Positions 1 through 6,300 of a DNA stretch of 55,978 nt are shown here, one piece after another (position 1 is the stretch's first letter; each line of letters begins with the position of its first letter). This DNA comes from Candidatus Altiarchaeota archaeon. Lineage in GTDB: Archaea > Altiarchaeota > Altiarchaeia > IMC4 > SCGC-AAA252-I15. The notes under the pieces are model-generated. The model saw only the letters and a list, made by a program, of their open reading frames with translations. It had not been told where the DNA came from and searched no databases. The stretch lies in assembly GCA_043800705.1 (NCBI GenBank), contig JAZDMS010000043.1, positions 1 through 55,978 of the forward strand, read 5' to 3'. A program made the translations under genes and the position numbers.

Positions 1-73
1 AGGTGCCATCTTCGGCTGCGGCCTCGATGCCACATAAAAAGGGGGAAAATCATAATCATCAAAAACCAAAAAC

Positions 74-144
74 GCGGCTGTAGTCTAGTGGTAGGACTCT
101 AGCCTTCCAAGCTGGAAACCCGGGTTCGAATCCCGGCGGCCGCA
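74..144 (+). tRNA. tRNA-Gly (anticodon TCC), no intron, CCA not encoded
   Basis: Cloverleaf: acceptor GCGGCTG/CGGCCGC plus discriminator A, anticodon arm CTAGC-CTTCCAA-GCTGG, T-arm CCGGG-TTCGAAT-CCCGG. Confidence 0.97.
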
Positions 145-230
145 TCCGGAGAAGTCGAAGCGACGAAAGTCGCACGATCCGCCGGGATGTAAAAAGCAAG
201 CGGGCTTTTTCGAGAATCCCGGCGGCCGCA
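145..230 (+). repeat. ~86-nt hairpin unit ending in a duplicate of the tRNA-Gly 3' end
   Basis: GAATCCCGGCGGCCGCA at 214-230 repeats 128-144; CCGCCGGGAT...ATCCCGGCGG inverted repeat; shares TCGAAGCG...CACGA and GGATGTAAAAA...TTTTTC with the units at 2178, 3909 and 3996. Confidence 0.85.
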
Positions 231-233
231 CAC

Positions 234-349
234 CTTTTCTTTCTTTTTGCGAAAAAGAAAGAAAAGCTGTACCAAAAGAAAGAAAAAGCGGCGCATTCGC
301 CTGATGGCGAATGCACCTGGAATAGATGCACTACCCTGCGGGGTAGGAA
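234..349. repeat. cluster of palindromes (REP/terminator-like hairpins)
   Basis: CTTTTCTTTCTTTTT-GCG-AAAAAGAAAGAAAAG, GCATTCGCC-TGAT-GGCGAATGC and CTACCC-TGCG-GGGTAG. Confidence 0.65.
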
Positions 350-378
350 GAATAAGCAGACCATAGACCCAAGGCTGC

Positions 379-407
379 AGACTTCAACACAGCCCCGTAG
401 TGTAGTG
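379..407 (+). repeat. duplicate of the tRNA-Gln leader and 5' end
   Basis: AGACTTCAACACAGCCCCGTAGTGTAGTG matches AGACTTCCAAAACAGCCCCGTAGTGTAGTG at 520-549. Confidence 0.85.
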
Positions 408-532
408 TTCCAGCGGCTCGCTCCGCTGGCGCGCGCTGCGGATGGAGGGTTCTTCGAACCCTCATGCACATGCACCACATACGTGTGGGAAGAGCAGAAA
501 ACGGAAAACTGGAAACAGTAGACTTCCAAAAC

Positions 533-605
533 AGCCCCGTAGTGTAGTGGCCTATCACAGCCGGCTTTGGACCGGCGAACTCAGGTTCGAATCCTGGCGG
601 GGCTA
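533..605 (+). tRNA. tRNA-Gln (anticodon TTG), archaeal A1:U72 type
   Basis: Acceptor AGCCCCG/CGGGGCT plus discriminator A, anticodon arm GCCGG-CTTTGGA-CCGGC, T-arm TCAGG-TTCGAAT-CCTGG. Confidence 0.97.
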
Positions 606-696
606 ATCAAACGAGGTTCGAACCCTACCCTTTTTTAAGGGTAGGAACCCCGATAATATACGCTGGTTTGGTTCCTTCAAAAGGAGGGGACCAAAA

Positions 697-1059
697 ATGG
701 AAGACGACATACACGGGACGCTCGGAACGCTCAAGTCCCTGAGAAACAACCTAGAGGAGTTAGCGCGTTCCGGAAAGATTTCTCAACAGAACTGCCGTCT
801 GATACTAGACCACGACATAGAACATGAAGTATCAGACGACATATCCCCCGGCCGCAGAAAAACCTACCTGACAGTTTTGAAGGAACTGGCCCTGCTGCTT
901 AAGAAAAAATCCTTCAAGGAAGCAACCAAAAAAGATTGGAATAGTATGCAGGCCACTAAAAAGCGAGATGCATACCTGAAATCAGCAATGGCATATCAAC
1001 CCAGATATCTGTTGATGCTGGGTATCCAGACGTTTTTCGTGACATGTCACATCAACTGA
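697..1059 (+). pseudogene. probable truncated tyrosine integrase (N-terminal SAM-like part only)
   Basis: Lies directly after the tRNA; segment ISPGRRKTYL...LKKKSFKEATKKD resembles archaeal integrase N-termini; no catalytic R/HxxR/Y domain follows. Confidence 0.5.
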
Positions 1060-1261
1060 TGAATAGGAGAGATAAAAGAGACTTAGAACCTACCCAATAG
1101 GCTGGGGTATCCCTCCTTGATATCCATAGTCATCAGGTCTGAGTCTACCGGATAGGCTCTTAGAATAATGGATGAGTTTCGAATCAAAACCATGGGCATT
1201 AATCTCAAAAATGTAACAGCCCCTGCTGGTTATAACCACAAAATTGGAGAAACTGAGGTTA

Positions 1262-1699
1262 TTACTTCAATTTTTGTATTTCTAGATTGTGACCTTTGGC
1301 GTAATCTTTGACTTTATTTTTATGCAGGTGTTCGTCCTCAGTCCAGAAAATCGCTGATTTTGTACTGATTGCCGTGGCAAGGTGTACCGCGTCTGCTGCG
1401 TGTAGGCCGAGTTCGATTTCTAGCTCTCTGGCTAGGGGAATCGTATTTGTTACAGGTATCAGTTTTATCGCACCCAATGTTGATAGTTGGTCTAGTACTT
1501 GGATGTGTTCTTCTATGCAGGATTTTCTCATACCCGCTTTAACGAAGGCCCGAACAACTTCTAAGACAAGCCATTCACTGGCGACAAATAAGGATTTCAA
1601 GTCGCTTATTCTGTTATATAATCCTTGAGCCTCTTTGGTTTTTGGCTCGTCATCTCTGAACCATTTCACAACGACACTAGCGTCAAGACATTCAGTCAT
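1262..1699 (-). CDS. vapC: PIN-domain (VapC) toxin
   Basis: N-terminal LDASVVVKW, LHAADAVHLATA, WTED acidic PIN motifs. Confidence 0.92.
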   Translation of the reverse strand: MTECLDASVVVKWFRDDEPKTKEAQGLYNRISDLKSLFVASEWLVLEVVRAFVKAGMRKSCIEEHIQVLDQLSTLGAIKLIPVTNTIPLARELEIELGLHAADAVHLATAISTKSAIFWTEDEHLHKNKVKDYAKGHNLEIQKLK

Positions 1700-1700
1700 T

Positions 1701-1934
1701 TTATTCTTCTTCGTGTGACCTGATGACGGCTTCAGTCAGACTTGGCAATCCCCGATTCTTCTCCCTCAGCTTCTGCATTTTTCCATCAAGTCGCATCATC
1801 TGGTACCTTCTTACTAAAAGTCTCAATGCCTCGTTCACAGCCTCTGTCCTGTTCCTGAAATATCCCTCCATGACAACTTTGTCCAACTCATGTACTAAAA
1901 CGGGGGTAGTCCTAACGTTCAACTGAGTACTCAT
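1701..1934 (-). CDS. ribbon-helix-helix (CopG-like) antitoxin
   Basis: QLNVR...LDKVVMEGYFRNRTEAVNEALR; immediately upstream of the PIN gene. Confidence 0.85.
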   Translation of the reverse strand: MSTQLNVRTTPVLVHELDKVVMEGYFRNRTEAVNEALRLLVRRYQMMRLDGKMQKLREKNRGLPSLTEAVIRSHEEE

Positions 1935-2099
1935 TATGTATCACCATGTATAACAAATGCAACTCAAGTATAAATACTAAAAACTGAGAGCAGGCACTGG
2001 GTTCACCTTACTTTAAGTGGGGGATTATACGCCTGTTTTTGGCATGTTTCAAGGGCCTATCAAATATCATGTATCCAGTACCGCCAAATTGTTAACCTA

Positions 2100-2177
2100 A
2101 TCATCGCCTTTTTTATATACCTTAACCCTATGGTTGGGTAGGAATCAAACCTAAGACGTATATTCCTGGCGGGGCTA
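2100..2177 (+). repeat. cassette right-end sequence ending in the tRNA-Gln 3' end (attR-like)
   Basis: 70/78 identical by manual alignment to 5625-5702; ends TCCTGGCGGGGCTA. Confidence 0.85.
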
Positions 2178-2266
2178 ATAGTATCACGTCGTAGCGGAGT
2201 CGTCTCACGAGCCGCCAGGATGTAAAAAGCGCGAAGCGCTTTTTTCATAGAATCCTGGTGGGGCTA
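2178..2266 (+). repeat. ~88-nt hairpin unit (copy 1) ending in the tRNA-Gln 3' end
   Basis: Near-identical to 3909-3995; inner hairpin AAAAAGCGC-GAA-GCGCTTTTT. Confidence 0.9.
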
Positions 2267-2412
2267 AACAAAATTTTATGCTTGATGTTCAGTCTATTCC
2301 TCTGTTTTATGGAGTATTTTCAGAAATGGGTTTGGGTCTCAAAAGGGCCCTACAGACGCAGGTTCGAATCCCTACTTCAAGCTTAAAAACAAGTAATATA
2401 ATGAAATAATAT

Positions 2413-3756
2413 ATGGATTCAACCGAATTCGTTAAAAGTTCAAGAGTTCTTAATCCTTTGGAGAGTGGAGTCAGAAGGGGGAAAAACTTCCTAAGCAGTT
2501 TGGTCGGGGCGTTAATTGGCTTATTACTATTTTTCCTTGTGGGACCGGGTCTACTCTTCATGTCGGAGTTCCAGTATACAGCAGAAAATCTGGCTAGGGC
2601 TGTGCCTGCGTCAGTTGGCTCGCCAGCCAACGGGTACGTCTATCTATATGGTATTCCCTCCCTTGTTTTGTCAAATCCCTGCATGCTATTGCCCGAAAAA
2701 CAATGTATTTATTACTCATACACTCAAGAGGAACTATTGGAGAAGACTGGTGTAAAATGCGGTTCAGACGCAAATAAACAGGGTGTAGTAAAAATATCTG
2801 ATGCGTCAGATAAATGCAGGACAAGGACAGTCCGAAAGGGTGGGCAGGATGTTGAGGAGCAGGTATGTGAAAAATGCATTAATGCCAAGTGGACTGAATG
2901 GGGGATAGTTTCTTCCAAAGAGAGCCGCCCGGATTTCAAGCTTGGAGTCAACACTGTGAAAACTCCATCCGCCTCATTCAAGGCCCTCAAAGAGCACTCC
3001 CGTGGAGAGTATACAGAACAGAATCGGAAACTCAGGGAGAAACTGAGTTACATAGATAACACAGACAATGTATTGGCGGTGGGTAATGCTGTAAATGGTT
3101 TGATGACAACCGGTAGTCCGTTCATAGTCTCCACAAAGGACTATGAATCGACAAAAGAACAGGTAAAGACTGAGCAAAGCACAAACTCATTAATAATGAA
3201 GGTCATCGGCTTCCTCGCCATCTTAATCGGCATGATGTTAATCCTAAGACCCATAACCGCGTTCGTCGAGATAGCAGGTGCAATCCCTTTCCTTGGTGAC
3301 ATCTTCATTGGTTTATCCAGCATCACCGGAATGGTCATGTTTGGATTCAGCATAGGTATAGCTATTTTGTTAACTATAGTCTACACCCTGGTTTTCAAGC
3401 TATTACGCATATTCGTTGACAACATAATTGTGGCCGTGGTAATAGGCGCCATAATCGGCCTAGTGACTTTAGTGATAGCATCCAAACTCCTGAGAATGAG
3501 GAAACCCCCACAGAACAAAATAGAAGACGAAGCACAAAAGCCCATGCCACAAACATCTTCAAGTCAACAATTAGTGAACCAGCAATCACAGGAGAGTGTC
3601 TCCCCGGTGAAAGTCGTAAATCCCAAAATGGTAGCCTACGTGTCCAAAGCACTTTCTGAGGGCAAGTCAAATGATGAAATCACAGGGAAACTAAGGGAAA
3701 TAGGCTTATCCGATGAAGAGATAACAACCGCACTACTCCAGGCACAAAACCCATAA
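2413..3756 (+). CDS. membrane protein, TMEM43/DUF1625-like topology, with low-complexity linker and small helical C-terminal domain
   Basis: N-terminal TM ending LLFMSE, large Cys-containing soluble domain, then MKVIGFLAILIGMMLILRPI...IPFLGDI multi-TM block. Confidence 0.6.
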   Translation: MDSTEFVKSSRVLNPLESGVRRGKNFLSSLVGALIGLLLFFLVGPGLLFMSEFQYTAENLARAVPASVGSPANGYVYLYGIPSLVLSNPCMLLPEKQCIYYSYTQEELLEKTGVKCGSDANKQGVVKISDASDKCRTRTVRKGGQDVEEQVCEKCINAKWTEWGIVSSKESRPDFKLGVNTVKTPSASFKALKEHSRGEYTEQNRKLREKLSYIDNTDNVLAVGNAVNGLMTTGSPFIVSTKDYESTKEQVKTEQSTNSLIMKVIGFLAILIGMMLILRPITAFVEIAGAIPFLGDIFIGLSSITGMVMFGFSIGIAILLTIVYTLVFKLLRIFVDNIIVAVVIGAIIGLVTLVIASKLLRMRKPPQNKIEDEAQKPMPQTSSSQQLVNQQSQESVSPVKVVNPKMVAYVSKALSEGKSNDEITGKLREIGLSDEEITTALLQAQNP

Positions 3757-3781
3757 GAAATAATAAAGATATCGCATTTAT

Positions 3782-3836
3782 TTAACACGTGCCAACTAAT
3801 TTCTCTCGAAAATAGATTTTTATTAGCACGTGCTAA
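3782..3836. promoter_or_regulatory. pair of palindromic protein-binding-like sites
   Basis: Perfect TTAGCACGTGCTAA at 3823-3836 and degenerate TTAACACGTGCCAA at 3782-3795. Confidence 0.45.
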
Positions 3837-3869
3837 AGAATATCTCGTACCTTACTATCGGAAGGTGCG

Positions 3870-3908
3870 AGGAATCGAACCACGTCTGTTCGAGTTCTGG
3901 CGGGGCTA
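3870..3908 (+). repeat. cassette right-end motif (degenerate attR-like)
   Basis: AGGAATCGAACC...TTCTGGCGGGGCTA; same layout as 2140-2177. Confidence 0.75.
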
Positions 3909-4082
3909 ATAGTATCACGTCGTAGCGGAGTCGTCTCACGAGCCGCCAGGATGTAAAAAGTCCGCAGGACTTTTTCAAGAATCCTGGCGGGGCTAATCAT
4001 ATCACTTCGAAGCGGAGTCGTCTCACGAGCCGTCAGGATGTAAAAAACTCGAAGAGTTTTTTCATAGAATCCTGGCGGGGCT
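3909..4082 (+). repeat. two tandem ~87-nt hairpin units, each ending in the tRNA-Gln 3' end
   Basis: Units 3909-3995 and 3996-4082; 3979-3999 is an exact 21-bp match to 589-609. Confidence 0.9.
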
Positions 4083-4139
4083 GCCTTCTTTTCTGGGTTC
4101 ATTTGCTGAGGACAGTAAACTGGGGACTGGAGACTTCAT

Positions 4140-4156
4140 GAATCTTGGTAGGGCTA
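4140..4156 (+). repeat. degenerate tRNA-Gln 3'-end copy
   Basis: GAATCTTGGTAGGGCTA vs GAATCCTGGCGGGGCTA. Confidence 0.65.
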
Positions 4157-4158
4157 CT

Positions 4159-4533
4159 TTATTTTACATATTCTACGTTTGGTAGGTTTTTGAATTCTTT
4201 GTCGCCTGTGAGGAATTTTATGTTTCGCTGCAGTGAGATTGTATAGCCTATGCAGTCGACATAAGATAAGTTTTTTTCTTTGTGTTGTTTTTTCAGCTTC
4301 ATTGCCTGTTTTATGATGTCATCTGTTATTTCAACAACATAGCCTTTGAAGACATCGTAGTATCTCTCTGCTGTTTTTTCGTCATGTCGTAGGAGTAGTC
4401 CATAATATAGTTCCATTAGGTTTAGATGGGTGGTGATGACAGCTATGCCTGATTTGAATCTATCATAATCCTTGTTTCCTTTGGCAATCTCGTACAATGC
4501 ATATGTGTCAAAGAAATACTCTTTTATTTCCAC
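4159..4533 (-). CDS. vapC: PIN-domain (VapC) toxin
   Basis: FFDTYALYE, LMELYY, LSYVDCIGY, LTGDKEF motifs. Confidence 0.92.
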   Translation of the reverse strand: MEIKEYFFDTYALYEIAKGNKDYDRFKSGIAVITTHLNLMELYYGLLLRHDEKTAERYYDVFKGYVVEITDDIIKQAMKLKKQHKEKNLSYVDCIGYTISLQRNIKFLTGDKEFKNLPNVEYVK

Positions 4534-4733
4534 CCTTTTCTAACCTCATCCTTAAAGTCCTGACCACTGATACTAGATTTTAAGGTTCCAAAGACCCCCC
4601 CTAAATTAGCTTCTCGAACAACATCGACAAGAATCTTCTCGTTCACTTCAATACCCTTCTGCTTAACATAATCCCTTGGGAATACAACCCCGTAGGAGTT
4701 ACCCCATTTGCGGACAAATACCTCAACAGTCAT
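4524..4733 (-). CDS. AbrB/MazE/SpoVT-type antitoxin
   Basis: RKWGNSYGVVFP motif; overlaps the PIN gene start. Confidence 0.9.
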   Translation of the reverse strand: MTVEVFVRKWGNSYGVVFPRDYVKQKGIEVNEKILVDVVREANLGGVFGTLKSSISGQDFKDEVRKGWK

Positions 4734-4746
4734 AAAAACACCAAAT

Positions 4747-4777
4747 AGTTATATGTATATTATACTTAAATATAACT
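4747..4777. promoter_or_regulatory. inverted-repeat operator / AT-rich promoter of the AbrB-PIN operon
   Basis: AGTTATAT...ATATAACT enclosing GTATA-T-TATAC just upstream of the antitoxin start. Confidence 0.5.
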
Positions 4778-4795
4778 TATCCATACTATTGTGTA

Positions 4796-4833
4796 AGGAA
4801 TCGGACCTTAGATGTATATTCCTGGCGGGGCTA
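4796..4833 (+). repeat. cassette right-end motif (attR-like)
   Basis: AGGAATCGGACCTTAGATGTATATTCCTGGCGGGGCTA; 34/38 identical to 2140-2177. Confidence 0.85.
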
Positions 4834-4899
4834 ATATATCCCTTTGCGGCATGACTGCTCCAGTATTCTGCGAGTCTGTAAATCCGACGGCTTAACCGT

Positions 4900-5244
4900 T
4901 CATATCGTGATGGTGATATTCGGTTTTGTGACCGGATGCATCTCTCGGCCGTTTTTCTTAACGTCTACTAATTTTAGGTGTTTCAGCAGGTTTATGTCTC
5001 GGCTGACGTTCTCCCTTTTCCTCTTCAGTTTTGTGGCCAGTTGGTTTATGGTGTAGTCTCCTTTGCGCATCTCGTGTATGAGGCGTATCCTCTCCTCGCT
5101 CAGGAACTTGGGCACGTCCTTGGGCGAAAGGTAGATTACCTGGTCTGGTTCGTTGTCCGCCAGCTTGGGATTGTCGAATATCCGGTTCACATCCTGGCGC
5201 AGGTCTTCCACTGAGCCGACCCTAACCTCTATTTTTGTTGTCAT
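4900..5244 (-). CDS. winged-HTH putative antitoxin (HVO_A0114-like)
   Basis: LSEERIRLI...TINQLATKLKRKRENVSRDINLLKHLKLV; start MTTKIEV overlaps the upstream stop. Confidence 0.75.
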   Translation of the reverse strand: MTTKIEVRVGSVEDLRQDVNRIFDNPKLADNEPDQVIYLSPKDVPKFLSEERIRLIHEMRKGDYTINQLATKLKRKRENVSRDINLLKHLKLVDVKKNGREMHPVTKPNITITI

Positions 5245-5567
5245 GGTTTCCCCTCTTTTTTGATTCTCTTGTGTTGTTGCTTGTATCGCCGCCAATTCTT
5301 TTCTATGTCGTCCAATGCCCGGTTAAACAATTCCTTGTAGGGCAACCTCGGCATATCCTCCTTCTTCGGCGGGTTCGTGCATAATGTGTCTTTGTGTGCG
5401 TGTCCATGGGCGCAGTCGTATCTTACAACCTGGTGGGGTTCCCCCTCTGTCAGGGTGTAATAGATTACTGCGAAGTCTATGACTTCTCCCCGGCATAGGG
5501 TTATCTTCGTGTATATTTCGTCTTCGCCGTAGACGAGCGGCTTAACCCTCTCAAGAACCCTAGTCAC
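5241..5567 (-). CDS. putative toxin (RYDxxHG..H motif; DUF6516/DUF7718-like)
   Basis: VVRYDCAHGHAHKD; toxin-first pairing with an HVO_A0114-like HTH gene. Confidence 0.65.
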   Translation of the reverse strand: MTRVLERVKPLVYGEDEIYTKITLCRGEVIDFAVIYYTLTEGEPHQVVRYDCAHGHAHKDTLCTNPPKKEDMPRLPYKELFNRALDDIEKNWRRYKQQHKRIKKEGKP

Positions 5568-5595
5568 ATATGTATCATAGTAAGATACATATAAA
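5568..5595 (-). promoter_or_regulatory. operator palindrome overlapping a TATA-like box
   Basis: ATATGTATC-N7-GATACATAT directly upstream of the GTG start; TTTATAT on the minus strand. Confidence 0.55.
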
Positions 5596-5624
5596 TACTC
5601 ATTTTTTGGGGGGGGATAGCCCCC

Positions 5625-5702
5625 ATCATCGTCTTTTTTATATACCGTAACCCTATGAATGGGTAGGAATCAAACCTGGTTCGTATATTCCTGGCGGGGC
5701 TA
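5625..5702 (+). repeat. terminal cassette right end (attR-like); island boundary
   Basis: Matches 2100-2177; GC content rises beyond it. Confidence 0.85.
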
Positions 5703-5752
5703 AATCTGTAGTCGAATTCTGCCATGGTGGGTTGAGGTTGATTCGGGGGCTC

Positions 5753-6300
5753 TCATAGGAGAAATGAAATCCCAATAGCAAGGAAAACCGCAGCAGCGGC
5801 CCTTGTCATGGTCTCCTGTTGATCCTTTCGGATATCATCTTGCCGAAGTATGCGGCCGTCGCCGACAGCGCCATCAAGGCTGTCAGTGCGCCTGCAAAGA
5901 CCATCAACGGGTCGTACTTGGTCGCAAGCAGGCCTGCGGCGATCTGCGTCTTGTCTCCGAGTTCCATCAGGAAGATTATGGTGAATCCTGAGACGAGGGG
6001 GTTCTTCATCTCATTCGTTCCTTCGTCCTTGTCTTTTCCTTCCCGCAGCATGAGGAGGCCGAAGAGGATGAACACGGCCGCCGATGCGGTGCGGATGAGT
6101 TGCATCGGCAGGTGCATGGACAGGAAGGAGCCTGCCAGTACCGCAAGTCCGTCCACGACTGCGAAGGCGAGCATGACGCCAAGGAGCATCCTCAGGCGTT
6201 GCTTCGTCTTGGAGGACATCAGCAGGATCGCTATCTGCGTCTTGTCGCCGAGTTCAGCAAGGCCTACCGCGGCCGCGGTTAGGGGGAAATCGTTTATCAT
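5753..6300 (-). CDS. GDT1/TMEM165 (UPF0016) Mn2+/Ca2+ transporter, frameshifted near 5812
   Basis: Two ELGDKTQ motifs; ORF stops at 5806 but the last TM helix (TMTRAAAAVFLAIGISFLL*) continues in another frame to 5753. Confidence 0.88.

Follow-up and report, generated by a model that had tools for sequence, protein, structure and literature searches.

Hairpin units with an arm complementary to the 3' end of their host tRNA behind tRNA genes of Altiarchaeota

The stretch of DNA considered here (the window, 55,978 nucleotides (nt) from a Candidatus Altiarchaeota archaeon) contains, close to its left end, two tRNA genes on the plus strand, and behind these lie copies of a small hairpin unit that carries an arm complementary to the 3' end of the tRNA. 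The first gene, tRNA-Gly(tcc), lies at 74..144 (ARAGORN; Rfam tRNA, 71.1 bits) and is the host of unit 1; the second, tRNA-Gln(ttg), lies at 533..605 (ARAGORN, Rfam) and anchors an array in which three further units are found. The four units, at 145-230, 2178-2266, 3909-3995 and 3996-4082, are gene-less, about 87 nt long and mutually homologous, as an initial annotation of the sequence had claimed for exactly these positions. They are matched by a covariance model with 67.2, 79.8, 88.1 and 82.2 bits, respectively, all on the plus strand, and each of them folds better than shuffled sequence, with z values between -2.9 and -4.0 (-3.8 for unit 1 and -4.0 for unit 3).

In all four units a linker of 34 nt is followed by an arm of 10 nt, by GT, by an inner hairpin of 20-22 nt, by a further 4-5 nt and, finally, by a copy of the last 15-17 nt of the adjacent tRNA. 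The inner hairpin is made up of a run of five or six A, a GC-rich stem with a loop of 3-6 nt, and a run of five or six T. In unit 1 the linker occupies 145-178, the arm, which reads CCGCCGGGAT, 179-188, and the inner hairpin, after GT, 191-210; CGAG and the copy of the tRNA-Gly end (215-230) complete the unit, and the tRNA-Gly end GAATCCCGGCGGCCGCA is exactly repeated at 128-144 and 214-230. Units 2 and 3 have the same arm, CCGCCAGGAT, at 2212-2221 and 3943-3952. Unit 2 has its linker at 2178-2211, its inner hairpin at 2224-2245 and its tRNA-Gln end copy, with one C>T change, at 2251-2266, and the corresponding parts of unit 3 are at 3909-3942, 3955-3975 and 3980-3995. In unit 4 the linker (3996-4029) is followed by the arm CCGTCAGGAT (4030-4039, one T.G wobble), by the inner hairpin (4042-4062) and by the copy (4068-4082). 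The boxes that pair are tRNA-specific, as exemplified by CCGCCAGGAT / ATCCTGGCGG. The arms read as initially reported at all four units, and the inner stems GCGC-GAA-GCGC, GTCC-GCA-GGAC and ACTC-GAA-GAGT stand as described, but the description does not extend to unit 1, which has GC-AAGCGG-GC. A search of window positions 1-6000 against Rfam (cmscan, E<=1) returned the two tRNAs only, with no match to RtT (RF00391) or to any other family.

The four units belong to a much larger family. This genome (G000) is available as 43 contigs and is 87.6% complete, and that of a congener (G001) is 92% complete. When a covariance model built from 16 units, themselves collected by an nhmmer profile of the four window units, is used to scan this and related genomes, as had been suggested, it finds 17 matches in G000, every one behind a tRNA gene or a tRNA-end copy, another 17 units in the congener, and a few in two sister genera. 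The hosts in G000 are Gly(tcc), Gln, Val(gac), Val(tac), Ala(ggc), Arg(tct), Arg(gcg), Arg(tcg, with an intron), Gly(gcc) and Ile(gat, truncated), and there is one orphan unit 2.6 kilobases (kb) behind Arg(cct). Among 60 relatives, the model matches 5 of the 20 genomes from the same family and none of the 40 from other families, orders or classes; in a search of the family only, matches occur in 7 of 21 genomes, G000 included, spread over 3 of 11 genera, with the same tRNAs occupied across three genera. In metagenome contigs there are 28 loci, with 23 units of full length, and the list of hosts is extended there by Ala(tgc), Lys(ttt) and more Arg types, so that about 15 tRNA species are hosted in all, with 18 distinct 12-nt ends in the genomes and 12 in the metagenomes. 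In species-representative genomes, units are present at 2 of 17 loci that fit the pattern, both in one metagenome-assembled genome of Altiarchaeota, the others being single chance matches in bacteria. A regular expression for the same architecture away from tRNAs gave four matches, all of them known units, the pattern being too strict. A limited search of the open-access literature gave no account of such elements in Altiarchaeota or other archaea. The units thus form a non-coding and structure-conserved family that is confined to tRNA genes or tRNA-end copies.

Every unit is bounded by direct repeats of the last 16-17 nt of its host tRNA, and the copied segment corresponds, across the family, to tRNA positions ~58-73. 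The conserved core is a two-storey hairpin, the lower storey of which, 10-11 base pairs high, is formed by the arm and the tRNA-end copy. The arm consists of acceptor positions 4-7, the 5' strand of the T-stem and AT, i.e., it is the reverse complement of tRNA positions 59-69, and it ends after about 11 nt, mostly beside an A.

How closely the arm follows its host is seen when the best gapless match of a unit to the reverse complement of a 12-nt tRNA end is determined for its own host and for other tRNAs. For 37 distinct units from five genomes (629 comparisons), the own end gives 9.76/12 and the 17 other ends give 7.52/12, and the own end is neither tied nor beaten in 21 of the 37. For 20 distinct metagenome units with 12 ends, the values are 10.85/12 and 7.78/12, and the own end is strictly best in 19 of the 20. 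This test is independent of any alignment. In a model-guided alignment of 49 distinct units, 94.5% of the outer-stem cells pair, compared with 80.2% in shuffles, and 74 cells are changed on both sides, compared with 18.8 in shuffles; neither value is reached in any of 500 shuffles, but these counts are not probabilities, since the sequences are related and the alignment has been fitted to the stem. Changes on both sides are seen in 7 of the 10 outer-stem pairs, and when the partner is slid by one to three columns, pairing falls to 29-57%. RNAalifold on a MAFFT alignment, in which the inner stem is misaligned, recovers only seven outer pairs.

The covariation of the outer arm with the host tRNA, which the initial annotation had claimed, is therefore found across about 15 tRNA species, both when own and other ends are compared and in the alignment, and its own concern that the matching rests on a single base pair is removed by the number of hosts and distinct ends. 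The arm tracks the host in the family as a whole, with exceptions: the fourth unit (d) behind Arg(gcg) matches in 7 of 12 positions, a Val unit in genome G003 has a deletion of 1 nt in its arm, and one Val(tac) unit carries an arm of Gln type. Where the two tRNA-end copies that flank a unit differ informatively, it is the copy on the tRNA side, upstream, to which the arm is better fitted in 12 of 14 cases; one case favours the downstream copy and one is a tie (hand tally).

The upper storey is conserved in structure rather than in sequence, since 53 of 55 inner regions fold, though 54 of the 55 sequences are distinct. The mean folding energy of a unit's own 5' and 3' halves is -8.66 kcal/mol, compared with -4.93 for 2970 chimeras, so that the covariation claimed for the inner hairpins of the window extends to the family. 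In the orthologous Gly(tcc) units of G000 and G001, compensatory changes are present in both stems.

The two strands are not equivalent. A GNA triloop with a closing C:G pair forms the apex of 21 of 58 units, and the complementary TNC loop occurs in none; likewise, CGNAG is found 24 times and CTNCG not at all. G.T juxtapositions in the outer stem outnumber A.C juxtapositions by 18 to 7 (binomial p ~0.04, for units that are not independent), and RNA folding favours the sense strand over the reverse complement in 32 of 38 units, with a mean difference of -2.35 kcal/mol. From these asymmetries in loop, G.T pairs and stability it follows that the tRNA-sense strand is under structural constraint, as RNA or as single-stranded DNA. 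The sense strand is A-rich (AT skew +0.23 to +0.28 in window 1-1000), which may favour purine loops, and purine-rich loops are therefore not proof of folding as DNA. According to PMC13037366, mini-hairpins of GCGNAGC type are exceptionally stable as DNA and much weaker as RNA, and they serve as marks of signals in single-stranded DNA, e.g., primase sites and the promoters of phage N4. This agrees with the exceptional DNA stability that had been attributed to the C-GNA-G triloops of the units, in which the apex is indeed rich.

The history of the units can be read from their parts. The linker consensus TAGTATC, CGAAGCGA, TCACGAA plus GGATG is kept over about 15 tRNA species and several genomes, and the linkers are not grouped by host, the nearest neighbour from another source sharing the host in only 9 of 48 cases. 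With this count, vertical descent of linkers within their locus finds no support. From the lack of clustering by host it follows that one lineage of modules sits at different tRNAs with different arms. Gln units a and b are identical in their first 52 nt and have an apex that differs at most positions, and two units at Val(gac) in G001 have a common apex and unlike linkers; the units are, therefore, mosaics. Related genomes differ in copy number and in apex at the same tRNA, and there are exact tandem duplicates (G001 Val(tac), in the order a,a,c,c, and locus L106) as well as decayed units (b-d on contig C5, b on C9 and the orphan on C20). Relic alleles of tRNA ends stand beside some units: an Arg(gcg) end of G001 type is found in G000 (C5:61460-61700) and at L109. 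Judged from sequence, such relics are as would be left by elements that bring their own tRNA end. At L109, both arms fit the live Arg(gcg) allele; the allele of G001 is found in the two downstream copies and in a 5' relic upstream. Since arm and tRNA-end copy differ between loci, simple cut-and-paste of one element cannot make the pattern.

The setting of the units in the window is an array of cassettes. The end of tRNA-Gln occurs nine times between 589 and 5708, including 589, 2161, 2250, 3892, 3979 and 4067, and the array, 606-5703, consists of segments that are each terminated by such a copy. In 5.1 kb, the nine copies bound three hairpin units and five low-GC cassettes, the order being an open reading frame (ORF) with a PIN/VapB-like pair, a unit, a membrane-protein gene, two units, a PIN gene, and an HVO_A0114/DUF7718 pair. 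Cassette 1 (606..2177, GC 0.41-0.48) contains an ORF at 697-1059 (+), a PIN toxin gene at 1262-1699 (-) and a VapB-like ORF at 1701-1934 (-), and ends with a distinct right-end module (2100-2160) and a tRNA-Gln end copy (2161-2177). Cassette 2 (2267..3908, plus strand) has a gene for a membrane protein of 447 amino acids at 2413-3756 and a closing copy at 3892-3908. The remainder, 4083..5703, contains a decayed copy (4140-4157), a PIN gene (4159-4533, minus strand), a copy at 4820-4833, the HVO_A0114 and DUF7718 genes (4900-5567, minus strand) and the final copy at 5689-5703. The GC content of the array is 0.40-0.47, compared with ~0.55 for the genome, and there is no integrase gene in 606-5703. 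In the congener, tRNA-Gln has one unit and synteny to the window is back only at ~8486, so the array is specific to this lineage; a cargo-bearing insert of ~470 nt in the congener is closed by a hairpin module (L015, 837-923). Conserved right-end modules of further kinds precede tRNA-end copies at other tRNA loci. Units are, in short, stacked in tandem and alternate with small gene cassettes, the same repeats bounding both.

The layout of the window, with units that form separate segments of the array, far from the tRNA and behind genes on the opposite strand, fits insertion modules at the level of DNA best. Likewise, it is supported by the analysis that the modules behave like an element which occupies tRNA 3' ends and multiplies there, as had been supposed at the outset. 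The interpretation that we put first, though tentatively, is that the units may be empty, cassette-like insertion modules with a folded, attC-like single-strand site that is matched to the tRNA. They would then be the smallest members of a lineage-specific family of non-autonomous insertion modules that occupy tRNA genes in their 3' part, between the T-loop and position 73. With the tRNA-sense strand present as single-stranded DNA, the hairpin would display the recombination core, a segment of the tRNA gene, as a duplex, in the manner of integron attC sites and of the attP(+) hairpin of CTX phage, and a putative recombinase would exchange strands near the T-loop edge of the repeat. A crossover at that edge predicts that the arm fits the tRNA-side copy, as it does in 12 of the 14 informative cases. 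An array could be enlarged whenever one of its copies receives another insertion or two copies undergo unequal crossing-over, and arms would stay matched if only modules that pair with the local core can fold and recombine again.

Several observations weigh against insertion modules of this kind. As both arm and copy are host-specific, a jump to a new tRNA needs extra steps. L109 is not explained by simple serial insertion, or by any simple model; the persistence of units at the same tRNAs over three genera is compatible with a host function as well; and the other cassettes of the array end in different modules that lack a long arm. No circular or excised form of a unit was seen, and in viral contigs there was no full unit at 36 loci that fit the pattern, the covariance model giving partial chance matches there. 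Nor was an enzyme found. The Y1 HUH transposase profile (PF01797) has 0 matches in G000 (a control search matched 6 of 14 reference genomes), and Cas1 (PF01867), the mark of a casposase, also has 0 matches in G000. Genes of IS110 type are found in G000 only, i.e., in 1 of 21 genomes. The tyrosine recombinase profile (PF00589) has no match in G001, which has 17 units, or in G003, G004 or G007. In G000 it finds one XerA-like recombinase, on another contig (C17:175-993), and family-wide it matches 10 of 21 genomes, recombinase content not being linked to unit content. Neither a HUH/Y1 enzyme nor a dedicated tyrosine recombinase was found with the units, although both had been suggested as possible partners, and no integrase that shares the att specificity for tRNA ends is found at the examined tRNA loci or in G000 and G001. 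The genomes used for these checks are 74-92% complete, and the absence of an enzyme is therefore not proven by them. The IS110-family genes of G000 are two transposase genes close together at C35:71750-73755 (L028, L029, L031), with none in 20 family relatives.

The unit may, alternatively, act as RNA, which we regard as possible and as less probable than insertion at the level of DNA. The unit would then be a trailer that is transcribed together with the tRNA or within an rRNA operon, and its hairpin, which copies the T-stem and the inner acceptor helix, would serve or modulate processing, e.g., by acting on RNase P, tRNase Z or another enzyme of tRNA as a signal or decoy that resembles a minihelix, or would mask the spare 3' end from mispairing with the tRNA body. 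Every unit is in tRNA orientation, the asymmetries fall on the sense strand, and it is this strand that folds better as RNA in 32 of 38 units, all of which speaks for an RNA, as do the compensatory changes in both stems of the orthologous Gly(tcc) units, the presence of units at the same tRNAs in three genera and the arms at L109, which follow the live tRNA allele rather than the adjacent copies. At L088, moreover, the interval from tRNA-Ala(tgc) to the start of 23S contains two units. The sequence downstream of them can be aligned with the leader and 5' end of 23S from G000, a genome whose tRNA-Ala(tgc) lies between 16S and 23S. The spacer of archaeal rRNA operons is transcribed in the pre-rRNA, and the units at L088, being inside the 16S-tRNA-23S spacer, should therefore be part of the pre-rRNA, in which case their T5 runs cannot be efficient terminators there. 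In general, however, a run of five or six T is an archaeal termination signal, and the one that precedes the tRNA-end copy in most units would cut the RNA before the outer stem could form. Furthermore, three of the four units in the window are separated from tRNA-Gln by 1.6-3.4 kb, with genes on the minus strand in between, and cannot be its trailer; copy number is unstable; there is no match to an Rfam family; and GNA triloops are weak in RNA (PMC13037366). Hairpins in a precursor that copy the acceptor/T-arm helix are known as t-elements or tRNA-like minihelices, which act as processing signals, e.g., for 5S rRNA in Haloferax; the unit differs from them in lacking a T-loop and the first three acceptor pairs.

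Two other RNA-level candidates were rejected. For an intron in the T-loop with a bulge-helix-bulge motif, which would consist of the first copy, the linker, the arm and the hairpin, the flanks of the would-be splice sites are not complementary and a three-way junction is formed; for C/D-box and H/ACA guide RNAs, there are no boxes at the required distance from the arm.

It is unlikely, in our estimate, that the units are mere scars, left without function by past integrations and by unequal crossing-over at a hot spot of recombination, in which the stems are kept complementary by processes at the level of DNA such as template switching within quasi-palindromes or gene conversion between repeats. 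The failure to find a recombinase, the many decayed units, the exact tandem duplicates and the mosaic units Gln a and b are all as expected from scars. Against this stand a consensus, linker included, that is conserved over about 15 tRNA species and several genomes, inner regions that fold in 53 of 55 cases while 54 of 55 sequences differ, and the fact that a symmetric DNA process is not expected to give strand-asymmetric loops.

It is highly improbable that the unit is a miniature single-strand transposon of IS200/IS605 type with the arm as a long guide that pairs with a cleavage site at the tRNA end: the guide would lie directly 5' of the hairpin foot and be complementary to the upstream flank and to the element end, the unit borders lie exactly after position 73, and an element end that recreates the target would explain tandem stacking, but no Y1 HUH transposase is found in G000 at its 87.6% completeness, known guides have 4 nt where the arm has 11, and a copy borne by the element would travel along with it, yet the copies are host-specific. 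IS608 recognises its sites by the base pairing of such a guide, according to PMC3201880 and PMC5934647, and single-strand hairpins with guide pairing to the flank are described there for IS200/IS605 ends and for repetitive extragenic palindromes (REP) and bacterial interspersed mosaic elements (BIME). The units resemble these, with an arm 2 nt from the inner hairpin whose complement is found in the tRNA end upstream as well as in the copy downstream. They are unlike them in that no TnpA or RAYT was found, in guide length, and in that their direct repeats derive from the tRNA. Miniature inverted-repeat transposable elements have terminal inverted repeats on either side and a short target-site duplication, and the units are not of this kind: the inverted arm of the unit is internal, 34 nt from its left border, and the repeats are 16-17 nt of tRNA.

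The attC sites and sedentary cassette arrays of integrons are among the closest known counterparts of the units. Like attC, the unit is a gene-less folded site at the 3' end of a cassette, in which an inverse core pairs with the core, and its predicted fold is an imperfect hairpin with an unpaired spacer, a variable top and a preference for one strand. Integron arrays are rich in toxin-antitoxin cassettes, and empty cassettes occur in them; a folded single-strand attachment site is also known from CTX phage, whose attP(+) hairpin is used by XerCD. The integron R''/R' consensus is RYYYAAC ... GTTRRRY. The core of an integron site is thus GTTRRRY, whereas that of the unit is the 3' segment of the host tRNA and differs between arrays. 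In other respects, too, the units depart from integrons, since there is no IntI-type integrase beside the array and no attI, the array is anchored by a tRNA gene and belongs to an archaeon, and only some of the cassettes carry the hairpin site. In attC it is the bottom strand that folds, according to PMC2727003, and the units are likewise strand-asymmetric in their predicted fold. A broader proposal, namely that Altiarchaeota possess an integron-like capture of genes which is anchored on tRNA genes, in which every cassette ends in a folded single-strand site with an inverse core that pairs with the 3' segment of the host tRNA, so that an 11-nt arm writes the target, and which relies on an enzyme of the host or on a recombinase outside the known families, is speculative, and we consider it doubtful.

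Cis-mobilizable elements (CIMEs) are gene-less or decayed elements that are bounded by direct repeats of tRNA 3' ends and stacked in tandem, as described in PMC5704250. Each unit is bounded by such repeats as well, but CIMEs are kilobases long and come from integrase-bearing elements, and the units have ~87 nt, a conserved hairpin and a target-antisense arm, with no integrase seen. The tRNA 3' end is a classic landing site of mobile DNA, where the known players carry integrases and fixed att sites. In E. coli, the 178-bp repeats of tyrT/tyrV (rtT RNA) are arranged in tandem behind a tRNA, end in tRNA 3' sequence and are co-transcribed with it. The units show no sequence or model match to rtT (RF00391), which occurs at one locus where the units occur at about 15 tRNA species, and we know of no target-matched inverted arm in rtT.

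If the arm is functional, the unit would be a site-specific element with a target that is encoded by base pairing, which would be of interest for programmable insertion, or else a new class of tRNA or rRNA precursor element. In these small archaeal genomes, tRNA loci capture toxin-antitoxin and other cassettes without a visible integrase, and the units offer a testable model for similar unexplained repeats, e.g., rtT in E. coli.

Other small elements are found at the same kind of locus. One of them, abundant as well, is a long palindrome, CTTTCTTTCTTTT...AAAAGAAAGAAAG, which is seen behind tRNAs and spare 5' copies and within tRNA introns (window 230-270; G000 C22:58870-58990, C29 and C14:126640-126830; L090, L091, L094). 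At C14:126640-126830 it lies inside the intron of a tRNA-Ala and after the gene, and at tRNA-Ile (C22) it is also flanked by tRNA-end copies. The tRNA-Ala(tgc) gene in the 16S-23S spacer of G000 (C14:126605-126769) has an intron of 89 nt that is largely the CTTTCTTTC palindrome element; that of L088 has no intron and has hairpin units behind it.

On the 5' side, 9 of 21 tRNAs (predicted without the intron option) are preceded, at a distance of 50-260 nt, by spare copies of their first 13-27 nt. In the window, a repeat search places such a copy of the first 17 nt of tRNA-Gln at 391..407 on the plus strand, 142 nt upstream of the gene, and in G000 others belong to Arg(gcg), Arg(cct), Val(tac), Ile, iMet (two copies), Asn and Phe. 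A conserved CAGCCTTAYTAAGGCTGGCGAAGG module often stands behind these spare copies and is also present in tRNA introns of relatives (L103, L104). In G001 there is a mirror form on the 5' side, with a 5'-end copy, a hairpin and a complementary arm (L019, G001:C28, ~15-190), which occurs twice upstream of a class II tRNA. Finally, a structured module of ~75 nt, GTTTCGGGGGAATCAGGGGTAAC...GGGGGCGGTAGCCCCC...GGTGGA, precedes tRNA 5' ends or is fused to a bare 3'-end copy that ends gene cassettes (G000 C42:30040-30104, C14:103830-103918 and C24:30387-30470), and it is also found upstream of tRNA-Gln in G001 (L017) and of tRNA-Ala(tgc) in G000 and L088.

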